From Escherichia coli (lineage in GTDB: Bacteria > Pseudomonadota > Gammaproteobacteria > Enterobacterales > Enterobacteriaceae): 64,000 bases of DNA. This document shows, one piece after another, positions 11,390 through 45,276 of the stretch; positions within the stretch are counted from its first letter, which is position 1; each line of letters starts with the position of its first letter. The stretch lies in assembly GCF_011045215.1 (NCBI RefSeq), contig NZ_CP049201.1. One strand, 5' to 3'. Below the pieces are notes generated by a model, which ran no database searches, had not been told where the DNA came from, and was given only the letters and a program-made list of their open reading frames with translations. A program made the translations under genes and the position numbers.

Positions 11390-12400
11390 ATGAGTGCGTT
11401 AAATAAGAAAAGTTTTCTTACTTACCTGAAAGAGGGCGGTATTTACGTCGTTCTTTTAGTTTTGCTGGCGATTATTATTTTCCAGGACCCAACATTTTTA
11501 AGTCTGTTGAACTTAAGTAATATTCTCACCCAGTCATCGGTGCGTATTATTATCGCGCTCGGCGTGGCAGGGTTAATTGTCACCCAGGGGACCGACCTTT
11601 CTGCAGGTCGTCAGGTGGGGCTGGCGGCAGTAGTAGCGGCGACGTTATTGCAGTCCATGGATAACGCCAACAAAGTGTTCCCGGAAATGGCGACGATGCC
11701 GATTGCGCTGGTTATTCTGATTGTCTGTGCCATTGGTGCGGTGATCGGTTTGATCAACGGTCTGATTATCGCTTATCTCAACGTGACGCCGTTCATTACC
11801 ACGCTTGGCACGATGATCATCGTCTATGGCATCAACTCGCTCTATTACGACTTTGTCGGGGCGTCGCCAATTTCTGGTTTTGACAGTGGCTTCTCTACCT
11901 TTGCTCAGGGCTTTGTCGCGCTGGGGAGTTTCCGTCTCTCTTACATCACCTTCTACGCGTTGATTGCGGTGGCGTTCGTCTGGGTGTTGTGGAACAAAAC
12001 CCGCTTCGGTAAGAACATTTTTGCCATTGGCGGTAACCCGGAAGCGGCAAAAGTATCTGGTGTCAACGTCGGCCTGAACCTGCTGATGATCTACGCGTTG
12101 TCTGGTGTGTTCTATGCCTTCGGCGGGATGTTAGAAGCCGGACGTATCGGTTCTGCCACCAACAACCTCGGCTTTATGTATGAACTGGATGCTATCGCGG
12201 CGTGCGTGGTAGGCGGTGTATCGTTCAGCGGCGGTGTGGGGACGGTGATTGGCGTGGTGACCGGGGTAATTATTTTTACCGTCATCAACTATGGCCTGAC
12301 GTATATCGGCGTAAACCCATACTGGCAGTACATCATCAAAGGGGCGATTATTATCTTCGCCGTAGCGCTGGATTCACTGAAATACGCGCGTAAGAAGTGA
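11390..12400 (+). CDS. mglC: Galactose/methyl-galactoside ABC transporter permease
   Basis: 336 aa polytopic membrane protein immediately after mglA. Confidence 0.9.
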   Translation: MSALNKKSFLTYLKEGGIYVVLLVLLAIIIFQDPTFLSLLNLSNILTQSSVRIIIALGVAGLIVTQGTDLSAGRQVGLAAVVAATLLQSMDNANKVFPEMATMPIALVILIVCAIGAVIGLINGLIIAYLNVTPFITTLGTMIIVYGINSLYYDFVGASPISGFDSGFSTFAQGFVALGSFRLSYITFYALIAVAFVWVLWNKTRFGKNIFAIGGNPEAAKVSGVNVGLNLLMIYALSGVFYAFGGMLEAGRIGSATNNLGFMYELDAIAACVVGGVSFSGGVGTVIGVVTGVIIFTVINYGLTYIGVNPYWQYIIKGAIIIFAVALDSLKYARKK

Positions 12401-12452
12401 TATGATTGTGGTCCGCATTCGGTCATAAACGCACATAACATCATGATCTGTG

Positions 12453-12870
12453 TGGTTTTGTAGGCCGGATAAGGCGTTCACGCCGCATCCGGCGACAGGA
12501 GCCAAATGCCGGATGCAACGCTGGCGCGTTTTATCCGGCCTACAATGAGCTCAACATACTGATTTGTATGGTTTTGTAGGCCGGATAAGGCGTTCACGCC
12601 GCATCCGGCGACAGGAGCCAAATGCCGGATGCAACGCTGGCGCGTTTTATCCGGCCTACAATGAGCTCAACATACTGATTTGTATGGTTTTGTAGGCCGG
12701 ATAAGGCGTTCAAGCCGCATCCGGCGACAGGAGCCAAATGCCGGATGCAACGCTGGCGCGTTTTATCCGGCCTACAATGAGCTCAACATACTGATTTGTA
12801 TGGTTTTGTAGGCCGGATAAGGCGTTCAAGCCGCATCCGGCGACAGGAACCAAATGCCGGATGCGTCTCT
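12453..12870. repeat. Tandem BIME/REP array, about 3.6 copies of a 116-bp unit
   Basis: Unit beginning tggttttgtaggccggataaggcgttca(c/a)gccgcatccggcgacagga... recurs at 12453, 12569, 12685 and 12801 with near-perfect identity; each unit holds two inverted REP palindromes. Confidence 0.85.
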
Positions 12871-12874
12871 GGTT

Positions 12875-14116
12875 TTACAACGTTACCGGGTGTTCTTTCT
12901 CGCCTTTCTTAAACTTCACTTCCCCGAGCTCAATACAACCCACCGGGCAGACGTGACCACAAAGCAGACAACCCACACATTTCTCGGTATTACAATGCGG
13001 TGTGCGGGTTTTCTCGCTCCATTCCATCGCCTGGTGACCGCCGTCGTAACAGGAAATATAACAGCGTCCACAGCCAACACATTTATCAAGATTGATACGG
13101 GGATAGACAATATAACTGCGGTCTAAATCTTCCGCCGGGACAATATTGTTATTCGCCAGACCTACCATCTCCTGCAACGAATCAAATCCCTGATCGGCGA
13201 GATAATGCGATAACCCGCTCGCCATATCTTCTACGATGCGATAGCCGTACTGCATAATGCCGGTGGTGACCTGTAACGTTGCTGCGCCGAGCAATAAAAA
13301 CTCCGCCGCATCCTCCCAGGTTTCAATGCCGCCGATACCGCTGATTGGGAAATCGCGCAGTTCTGGATGGGTGCGCATTTGCTGAATGAAGCGCAGGGCG
13401 ATCGGTTTTACCGCTTTACCGGAATATCCGGAAATACTCGATTTTCCGTTAACGATCGGCATACCGATTTTCTGATTAAGATCGATATTGGTGATGGATT
13501 TAACAGTGTTAATCGCCGCAATGCCATCTGCGCCGCCGCGCTTCGCCGCCAGCGCCACTTCGCACATATCACCGATATTCGGCGTCATCTTCGCCAGCAT
13601 TGGCAGCGTGGAACCCCGTTTCACTGCCCGACAATATTTTTCTACCAGCTCCGGGCTTTGCCCGACATCGCTACCCATCGCATGAGAAGTCATTTGCGGA
13701 CAGGAGAAGTTACACTCGATCATATCCGCGCCAGCTTCTTGCACCAGGCGCGCCAGCTCCTCCCATTGCTGCTCATTTTCCCCCATGATCGAAGCGATCA
13801 ATACTTTGTCCGGGTAATCTTCCTTCAGCCGACGCAGGGCGGCCAGATTCTCTTCCAACGGATGTTCAGCAATCTGCTCCATATTTTTGAAGCCGATAAA
13901 ACCGATATCTTCTTTCACCAGATGATCAAAACGCGGCGAGACTTCGTTGGCGATAAAAAAGCCGATCGTTTTAAACACCACGCCGCCCCAACCTGTGTCG
14001 TAGGCTTTGGCACACATCTCATAGCAGTTGCCTACCGGCGAAGAAGAGAGGCAGAACGGGTTGGGAAACTTCACGCCGCAAAAAGTAATCGAAAGATCTT
14101 TCGTTAACATGAGCAA
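12875..14116 (-). CDS. preA: NAD-dependent dihydropyrimidine dehydrogenase subunit PreA (DHOD-like TIM barrel plus 4Fe-4S ferredoxin domains)
   Basis: 413 aa ORF with C-terminal Cys clusters ([23 protein letters not shown]); overlaps the preT stop by 13 nt. Confidence 0.85.
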
Positions 14117-15535: not shown

Positions 15536-17531
<1,996 letters not shown>

Positions 17532-22885: not shown

Positions 22886-22928
22886 CGCAGTGAGGTGCGT
22901 GGTTATTTCAATGGGTAAAATTTTGGTA

Positions 22929-23006
22929 GGCATGATAAGACGCACAAGCGTCGCATCAGGCATGGTGCCCCGGATGTCGGATGCGGCGCGAACGCCTTAT
23001 CCAGGG
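22929..23006. repeat. BIME (two REP palindromes)
   Basis: ggcatgataagacgcacaagcgtcgcatcaggcatg plus cggatgtcggatgcggcgcgaacgccttatccagg between convergent yohF and yohD. Confidence 0.6.
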
Positions 23007-24350: not shown

Positions 24351-24523
24351 AAAGTTCTTTGACGTTGCATTGCTGGCGTAAATGTCAGCAATGCAGCATT
24401 TCCTCACGATTCTCCTTTGACGATCGCACTTTTTGCTCGTTATGATGGCGTCGCTAGCCTCAGTAAATCCTTACTCCGGCGGTGCGCAACCCGTGCGCGT
24501 GAACCACTATCTGAATGCTCATC

Positions 24524-29777: not shown

Positions 29778-29811
29778 GTAGGCCGGATAAGGCGCTCGCG
29801 CCGCATCCGGC
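29778..29811. repeat. REP element
   Basis: gtaggccggataaggcgctcgcgccgcatccggc downstream of bglX. Confidence 0.6.
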
Positions 29812-44952: not shown

Positions 44953-44990
44953 AATAAAAAAACCTGCTGGTGAGGCAGGTTCTTTTATTT
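44953..44990. terminator. Bidirectional rho-independent terminator in the yehK-yehL intergenic region
   Basis: 7-bp stem aacctgc/gcaggtt flanked by an A run upstream and a T run downstream, so it gives a U tract on either strand. Confidence 0.5.
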
Positions 44991-45276
44991 ACTATTTTCA
45001 GGCCTAACACCACAGCCTGTGCAACATCGTGTTCCAACGAACGAATTATAACCACGGCTGGACCCCGTTGCAATTAAGATAATGAGATTTATAATCCAGA
45101 CCGTTGGGACGTTGCGCCGGATCGAACCTATTTCAAGTCCTGGCTACCGGACGGGTGGTGCTGCAGGTGGTGCCCTGATCCGGAGTGCAACATCGTGGTC
45201 CAACATACGTAAACCAGTATCGACAGGCAGTGTAAGGGTAAGGTGCTGGTGTTGCGCTCCTTAATAAGGAGAGCGG

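Follow-up and report, generated by a model that had tools for sequence, protein, structure and literature searches.

Between the convergent genes mglC and preA, the window (the whole 64,000-nucleotide stretch of Escherichia coli DNA analysed here) carries a run of nearly identical repeats, which raises the question of what kind of element this is, how its copies arose, whether their number is real and what they may do. The reading that we hold to be highly probable is that the feature is a copy-number-expanded allele of a BIME resident at the mglC/preA site, which grew in place and whose function would be that described for its class. Both this kind of element and the copy-number polymorphism of such arrays are already known, and the case is mildly notable for its record copy number, for an L-like linker with an IHF core inside a Y/Z2 tandem and for repeated independent duplications. 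It serves as a clear worked example of BIME growth, in which whole 116-bp units were added in register, independently in several lineages, atop an old element shared with Escherichia whittamii.

Location and composition of the array

The one array detected by Tandem Repeats Finder lies at 12437-12864, with a period of 116, 3.7 copies, 98% matches, no indels and a score of 807, and a repeat search of the region returned 204-nt direct copies at 116/116 spacing together with many inverted pairs. The array lies inside a gap of 474 bp that runs from the stop of mglC to the stop of the convergent preA, with the stop codon of preA 10 bp beyond the array end (Table 1). The earlier note on this DNA had given limits of 12453-12870, only a few bases off the true ones, and its placement of the repeats downstream of mglC agrees with the annotation of the adjoining open reading frame as MglC in every matching E. 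coli record.

With the GTAG at 12460, in the first REP, taken as the start of unit 1, the array comprises three full units and a partial fourth of 57 bp, which is made up of Y, S and 9 nt of Z2. Unit 2 is the same as unit 1, with 0 differences over 116 bp, unit 3 departs from both by one substitution (C>A at 12713), and the partial unit shows 1-2 substitutions relative to the others (the C>A of unit 3, plus a G>A at 12849). The description of four units that differ by one or two substitutions was thus right about their near-identity (0-2 differences), but the fourth unit is only partial. The 32-bp linker was observed in three exact copies against 0 expected in shuffles, so the repeat did not arise by chance.

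Within each unit the order is a Y-type REP of 34 nt (GTAGGCCGGATAAGGCGTTCACGCCGCATCCGGC), a head-to-head S linker of 14 bp, a Z2-type REP of 36 nt and a tail-to-tail linker of 32 bp, here called L' (AATGAGCTCAACATACTGATTTGTATGGTTTT). The whole array reads Y1-S-Z2-L', Y2-S-Z2-L', Y3-S-Z2-L', Y4-S, ending in 9 nt from the head of a Z2; in all, 7 of its REP hairpins are complete and there are 3 L' linkers. A REP, or palindromic unit, is an imperfect palindrome of 30-40 nt with a conserved GTAG by the foot of its stem, situated outside genes. Each of the seven complete units in the window, at 34 nt (Y) or 36 nt (Z2), has the GTAG/CTAC, and all lie between the stops of mglC and preA. The first Y REP folds at -19.5 kcal/mol on the + strand and -21.3 kcal/mol on the - strand and the first Z2 REP at -20.5 kcal/mol, while REP hairpins on either strand, each of which has a single internal mismatch, range from -19.5 to -21.3 kcal/mol. 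Folding of the entire gap compared with shuffles gave z = -15.5 for the + strand and -14.8 for the - strand.

Table 1. Features of the mglC/preA gap and its neighbours (positions in the window)
Feature	Position	Strand	Description
mglC	11390..12400	+	galactose/methyl-galactoside ABC transporter permease; last gene in mglBAC; stop TGA at 12398-12400; ORF and annotation in every matching E. coli record
Leader	12401..12459	+	59 nt, from mglC stop to first REP
Degenerate half-linker, left edge of array	12437-12459	+	AACATCATGATCTGTGTGGTTTT; 23 nt; decayed right part of the 32-bp linker, 4 mismatches in the TRF register
Y-type REP no. 1	12460..12493	-	+ strand reads GTAG...CATCCGGC; classical GCCGGATG...CCTAC orientation on - strand
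S linker no. 1	12494..12507		head-to-head, 14 bp, GACAGGAGCCAAAT
Z2-type REP no. 1	12508..12543	+	36 nt, GCCGGATGCAACGCTGGCGCGTTTTATCCGGCCTAC
L' linker no. 1	12544..12575	-	tail-to-tail, 32 bp; - strand AAAACCATACAAATCAGTATGTTGAGCTCATT; IHF core AATCAGTATGTTG at 12552-12564
Unit 2	12576..12691		Y2 12576-12609, S2 12610-12623, Z2-2 12624-12659, L'2 12660-12691; same as unit 1
Unit 3	12692..12807		Y3 12692-12725 (C>A at 12713), S3 12726-12739, Z2-3 12740-12775, L'3 12776-12807
Partial unit 4	12808..12864		Y4 12808-12841 (A variant), S4 12842-12855 GACAGGAACCAAAT (G>A at 12849), Z2 head GCCGGATGC 12856-12864
Rfam naRNA4 (RF02564), full-length matches	12463-12540, 12579-12656, 12695-12772	+	85.8, 85.8 and 78.7 bits; gathering score 59.5; model 1-77
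Rfam naRNA4 (RF02564), partial match	12811-12874	+	38 bits, truncated fourth block
preA	12875..14116	-	NAD-dependent dihydropyrimidine dehydrogenase subunit; convergent with mglC; ORF and annotation in every matching E. coli record

Several other kinds of element were considered and rejected. A scan of the array for intrinsic (Rho-independent) terminators found stable REP hairpins with no T-run, and hence no U-tract in the transcript, behind them; the sole candidate was a weak alternative pairing of 6 pairs inside each Z2, followed by CGTTTTATCC. A coding array was discarded, since the repeats offer only mechanical open reading frames of 25-47 aa with TTG or GTG starts and 116 is not divisible by 3. 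A CRISPR-like array or a MITE was rejected by inspection, as the sequences between repeats are identical and neither a terminal inverted repeat nor a target-site duplication was seen.

Elsewhere in the window, REP-like sequences occur with no tandem repeat: a single Z2-S-Y BIME at 22927-23003 (GTAGGCATGATAAGACGCACAAGCGTCGCATCAGGC ... GTCGGATGCGGCGCGAACGCCTTAT), a lone Y REP at 29778-29811 and a degenerate Y REP at 16604-16639. The window also holds a full-length match to the Rfam OrzO-P antitoxin RNA (RF02083) at 44956-45031 (-; 99.9 bits, gathering score 60), which indicates a putative zor-orz type I toxin-antitoxin locus, and a match to the Rfam Peptidase-S11 cis-regulatory RNA motif (RF03039) at 24439-24519 (+; 72.8 bits, gathering score 34.8).

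Alleles of the site across strains

The site was surveyed with a 1,100-bp query that spans the array and its flanks against 5,426 complete E. coli genomes, and gap lengths were confirmed on fetched representatives. A gap of 50 bp, as in HS-02, holds no array, and one of 70 bp, as in 55989, holds a small hairpin, GCCGGATGC-GCT-GCATCCGGC, and no BIME. At 126 bp (wlxctx60) there is only a Y, at 242 bp (K-12) one full unit and the partial one, at 358 bp (ETEC6335 and S30) two full units and the partial one, and at 474 bp (the window) three full units and the partial one, so that the gaps of 126, 242, 358 and 474 bp equal 126 + 116n with n = 0-3. An irregular form of 258 bp, with the order Z2-L-Z2-L-Y, is found in GPEC1354 and GF60. 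The right-hand end of the partial unit is common to every array-type allele compared.

The frequencies of these forms are very uneven. About 51% of the 5,426 genomes have the K-12 form of 242 bp and about 47% have no array (gap of 50-70 bp), and an evenly spaced sample of 59 chromosomes contained the K-12 form 29 times, the 70-bp form 26 times and the other forms once each. Array-type alleles are represented by the 2,877 genomes that cover at least 80% of the 1,100-bp query. The 358-bp form, which has one unit more than K-12, occurs in three assemblies in 5,426, namely ETEC6335, S30 and one assembly of Nissle 1917; these same assemblies, with two linkers each, are the best matches to a query of two units plus linker, for which no single full-length match exists among the 5,426 genomes. 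The form seen in the window (three full units plus the partial one) is present in none of them, and the array, with two units more than K-12, has the record copy number among these complete E. coli genomes. The comparison of copy number across strains that had been proposed in the earlier note accordingly gives 0, 1 or 2 full units elsewhere at the same site against 3 in the window. The gap length (50, 70, 126, 242, 258, 358 or 474 bp) could serve as a small strain-typing marker.

The linker offers an independent count of units. A 40-nt query made of the linker with its CTAC/GTAG ends matched 2,883 places in 2,825 of the 5,426 E. coli genomes (median 1 and maximum 3 per genome), which leaves 58 places in total beyond one per genome, and there were no matches on plasmids in these genomes. 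The 32-bp linker is therefore, as judged from these matches, specific to the mglC/preA locus and no genome-wide motif. The maximum of three separate matches to the 40-nt query was reached in one genome, and a high-identity 116-bp tandem with three linkers occurs in none of the genomes. Patterns of two or three linkers at 116-bp spacing gave 0 matches in JGI metagenome contigs, in a scan run without a positive control.

Two observations bear on the background of the window allele. Between 13000 and 33000 of the window, the best identity to any of the 5,426 complete RefSeq E. coli genomes is 98.8% over 20 kb, and the array with 30 bp either side of the gap is, base for base, that of ETEC6335 except for the extra unit; hence the source lineage, which may be Shigella or one that is seldom sampled, lies outside the collection, or the region is mosaic. 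In addition, 55989 and about half of the E. coli genomes carry the 70-bp 'empty' allele, in which a perfect hairpin, TTGCCGGATGC-GCT-GCATCCGGCAA, is followed by TCGGTGCCAAATGCCGGATGC, and the GCATCCGGC / S-like / GCCGGATGC end of the 55989 allele is common to the right end of the array. These shared sequences suggest that the BIME was built onto, or replaced, the small hairpin of the empty allele.

Outside E. coli, a near-exact linker pattern had 0 matches in a scan of genome contigs, and a degenerate linker core was found there in Escherichia whittamii only. Between mglC and preA, strain Sa2BVA5 of this species (NZ_JACSQI010000005.1) carries one Z2-L'-Y-S-truncated-Z2 element, which is built like a BIME-1 but with Z2 as the partner REP and is probably near the ancestral state of the array. 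The single copy at the same site implies that the element is old and that its tandem growth in E. coli is recent.

Origin and reality of the additional units

In each expanded allele the units bear the SNPs of their own lineage. Both units of S30 have the K-12-lineage SNPs GCAAC and AATAAG, the units of ETEC6335 have GCGAC and AATGAG, and those of the Nissle 1917 assembly CP007799 have AATGAGCAC and GGAACC throughout, which means that the duplications were independent, recent and in place. Of the two histories proposed earlier for the near-identity of the units, recent amplification is supported by the series of unit numbers across strains and by the lineage-specific SNPs of the added units, whereas ongoing concerted evolution is not needed, since independent in-place duplications fit recent amplification better.

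Along the array of the window the order of SNPs is C,C,A,A in Y and G,G,G,A in S. Relative to ETEC6335 there is one extra unit only, in which the A variant of Y, as in the last unit, is paired with the G variant of S, as in the earlier units; read by its SNPs, unit 3 is thus a recombinant unit in which the A variant of Y is joined to the G variant of S. A single misaligned exchange in a 358-bp allele of the ETEC6335 type would convert it into the window allele, and the exchange point would fall within 20 bp, between the SNP in the Y loop (unit position 22) and the SNP in S (position 42). Growth in place would then mean that whole units are duplicated in register, between copies that are sisters or misaligned. 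The route could be unequal homologous recombination or replication slippage, with a possible part for the REP-associated transposase TnpA-REP, and homologous unequal exchange or slippage is sufficient to account for the sequences.

A stronger role for the transposase would have units added by the TnpA-REP/RAYT tyrosine transposase through cleavage at iREP or linker C|T sites, followed by strand transfer or rolling amplification, which we consider unlikely. Every step of the 126/242/358/474 series is a seamless in-register gain of 116 bp, and the new units are simple recombinants of their neighbours, for which homology-driven exchange is enough; moreover, we know of no in vivo evidence of TnpA-REP-driven amplification. 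On the other hand, the irregular 258-bp alleles of GPEC1354 and GF60 (Z2-L-Z2-L-Y) do not resemble the outcome of simple in-register exchange and may fit the activity of the enzyme better, and TnpA-REP cleaves and recombines BIMEs in vitro (Ton-Hoang et al., PMC3333891).

A different objection concerns the assembly itself: the array could be real but its copy number inflated, the true allele having one or two units fewer. The copy number of the window is found in no other of the 5,426 genomes and had no metagenome match, so that one assembly stands behind it, and units 1 and 2 agree at every one of their 116 bp, a length that short reads lacking spanning pairs cannot resolve. There is also a precedent at the same array. 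The Nissle 1917 assembly CP007799 (5.44 Mb; NZ_CP007799.1 5244350-5245458) has two full units with norR as the right-hand neighbour, in disagreement with other Nissle assemblies (CP022686/NZ_CP022686.1, CP035486 and derivatives) and related B2 strains, which have one full unit and preA as the neighbour. This discordance would reflect either a misassembly or a rearrangement with its breakpoint at the array; it marks the array as a weak point for assemblies, with one Nissle 1917 assembly discordant exactly there, and on the sequences compared it makes concern over an artefact legitimate. However, tandem repeats are usually collapsed by assemblers rather than expanded, expanded alleles are present in two further assemblies of different lineages, which indicates that expansion occurs at the site, and the order of SNPs in the window is the exact prediction of one unequal crossover from an ETEC6335-type allele. 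With these points taken together, we judge inflation by assembly to be quite improbable, and the copy-number-expanded resident BIME is retained as the preferred reading.

The 32-bp linker and its IHF core

The L' linker resembles the L motif of BIME-1 elements. In the same orientation relative to Y, the reverse complement of the linker can be aligned to this motif in the katE-chbG BIME-1 (AAAACCGTGCAAATTCAATATATTGCAG against AAAACCATACAAATCAGTATGTTGAG), and 2 of 2,000 shuffles scored as high as this alignment, although the right third of the L motif is not conserved in the window linker. The BIME-1 sequence used for comparison was found in E. coli genomes with 98% identity along all of its 98 nt, and each genome has no fewer than 40 matching places.

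The sequence AATCAGTATGTTG, which fits the IHF core consensus WATCARNNNNTTR perfectly, is present in all three linkers. About 5 occurrences of this 13-nt core are expected by chance per 64 kb, and the three matches in the linkers, being one match copied three times, are weak evidence of IHF binding when taken from sequence. According to the literature IHF binds the L motif of BIME-1 and not BIME-2 (PMC3333891). As the tail-to-tail linker in the window is L-like and has a perfect IHF core, the suggestion of IHF binding in the earlier note may still hold, and the L'-type linkers are regarded as predicted sites that IHF may bind.

Possible functions

The functions considered here (protection of mRNA 3' ends, attenuation, and binding of gyrase or IHF) are those that the literature on the class would predict for this array. 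REP hairpins reportedly shield upstream mRNA from 3' exonucleases, and BIMEs are said to attenuate transcription. In the window, each REP hairpin of about -20 kcal/mol, lacking a U-tract on either transcript, would block 3'-to-5' exonucleases, so that the 3' ends of the mglBAC and preTA mRNAs would be protected and read-through into the opposing operon attenuated. The Y REPs would be preferred sites of gyrase binding and cleavage at a place where convergent transcription piles up positive supercoils, and the L'-type linkers may each bind IHF. By analogy with the class, the position between convergent operons fits roles at RNA ends and in the relief of supercoils. More units would provide more redundant hairpins and sites, with no sign of a qualitatively new activity, and because about 47% of E. 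coli genomes do without the array, any role that it has must be dispensable.

For the class as a whole, the properties that the earlier note had ascribed to arrays of this kind (gyrase and IHF binding, stabilisation of mRNA and proneness to rearrangement) are established (PMC3333891, PMC6379681). BIME-2 elements are enriched in gyrase cleavage sites, with y preferred over z2, and this enrichment is independent of transcription (PMC6379681). The text of the Sutormin supplement on gyrase cleavage makes no mention of mglC, preA or yeiA, and no paper was found in the literature searched that deals with mglC together with the term 'extragenic palindromic'. RNAs from the K-12 array REP325 bind HU, and two such hairpins are enough to condense DNA together with this protein (Qian et al. 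2015, PMC4550694).

These last findings give rise to the view of the array as a cluster of naRNA4-like RNA genes, in which Y-S-Z2 transcripts would bind HU and bridge cruciform DNA and expansion would raise the RNA dose. The three full-length RF02564 matches (79-86 bits against the gathering score of 59.5) lie on the sense strand of mglC, so that the mgl promoter could transcribe them, and REP325 repeats of the same Y/Z2 build yield the HU-binding RNAs (PMC4550694). However, the model in effect recognises any Y-S-Z2 pair, and queries that contain the REPs of this array find about 23-35 places in each E. coli genome, which means that a naRNA4 match shows shared architecture and not shared function. 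The lack of the array in about 47% of E. coli genomes also speaks against an important dose-dependent role, and we regard a cluster of RNA genes as very unlikely. Although Rfam naRNA4 calls three 'sRNA genes' here, they are read as Y-S-Z2 units of a BIME, with no evidence of a dedicated RNA gene.

It would also be conceivable, by analogy with the class, that the array is an architectural element tunable by copy number, with a gyrase-preferred Y REP and an L-derived IHF site in each unit, whose expansion would be adaptive and not the result of neutral slippage. If this were true, gain and loss of units would set the insulation between mglBAC and preTA (relief of supercoiling, read-through and stability of mRNA 3' ends), by means of a combination of Y REP and L-derived IHF site in one unit that the BIME-1/BIME-2 classification treats as atypical. 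We attach only the slightest probability to such adaptive tuning, and functions expected of the class are retained for the expanded resident BIME.

Comparison with known BIME arrays

Previous identification of the repeats as a BIME array is well founded, since its REP hairpins are by turns of the Y type and, in opposite orientation, of the Z2 type, with fixed linkers between them, and the naRNA4 model scores above its gathering score in three units. BIME-2 elements consist of y and z2 in tandem with an S linker; their copies are well conserved within a locus and their copy number differs between strains (PMC3333891), and variation in BIME copy number between strains is likewise described in a passage of a further paper, which cites Bachellier 1997 (PMC1187871). 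The window array has y and z2 in alternating inverse orientation, in tandem copies (3.7 copies of 116 bp) with a short head-to-head S linker of 14 bp, and by these features it is of the BIME-2 type, a long-known and ordinary kind of E. coli intergenic repeat.

BIME-1 elements (RIB/RIP) have one Y and one Z1 in single copy with a flanking L, and the window element shares with them only the L-like linker: its partner REP is the 36-nt Z2 in place of the short Z1 of katE-chbG, and it is tandemly repeated with S linkers. In the alignment, the Y segment (that of unit 3 was used) equals the Y of the katE-chbG BIME-1 except at the C>A site of unit 3, and as this site is the sole difference between unit 3 and Y1 or Y2, the latter two should be identical to the BIME-1 Y. 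Builds that mix BIME-1 and BIME-2 are 'atypical BIMEs' in the Bachellier scheme (PMC3333891). The tail-to-tail motifs that flank BIME-2 units are of type s, l or r. Depending on how the sequence of the linker is classed, the array would be either a BIME-2, if the linker is taken as 'l', or an 'atypical BIME', a chimera of BIME-1 and BIME-2, if it is taken as L.

The K-12 array REP325, a BIME-2 between yjdM and yjdN, has the same plan as the window array, with Y and Z2 in alternating inverse orientation, a short head-to-head S, a fixed tail-to-tail linker and near-identical tandem copies. Rfam naRNA4 (RF02564), which was built on REP325 units, matches both, and in the window its covariance model recognises three Y-S-Z2 blocks on the sense strand of mglC. 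As fetched from K-12, REP325 has a period of 100, 5.8 copies and 96% matches. The period of 116 in the window in place of 100 arises because the tail-to-tail linker is 32 bp there against 17 bp in REP325; the longer linker is L-like, occurs at the mglC/preA locus only and is unlike that of REP325. The S linkers, which resemble each other by eye, are of 14 bp in the window (GACAGGAGCCAAAT) and 13 bp in REP325 (AACGGTGCCGACT), and Y1 and Y2 differ from the REP325 Y, also by eye, at one loop base. The Z2 is identical to that of REP325 at 31 of 36 positions. Four of the five differences make up two compensatory pair swaps (T4-A29 to G4-C29 and G10-C23 to A10-T23) and the fifth lies in the loop, and through the two swaps the Z2 of the window has a Y-like foot (GCCGGAT/ATCCGGC), in which it differs from that of REP325.

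The BIME between mglC and preA (yeiA) of K-12 MG1655 occupies the same site with the same flanks, its left leader and truncated right-hand Z2 end are identical to those of the window, and its unit sequence is the same save for 2-3 SNPs. The two differ in extent, MG1655 having one full unit and the partial one, with 3 REPs in 242 bp, whereas the window has three full units and the partial one, with 7 REPs in 474 bp.
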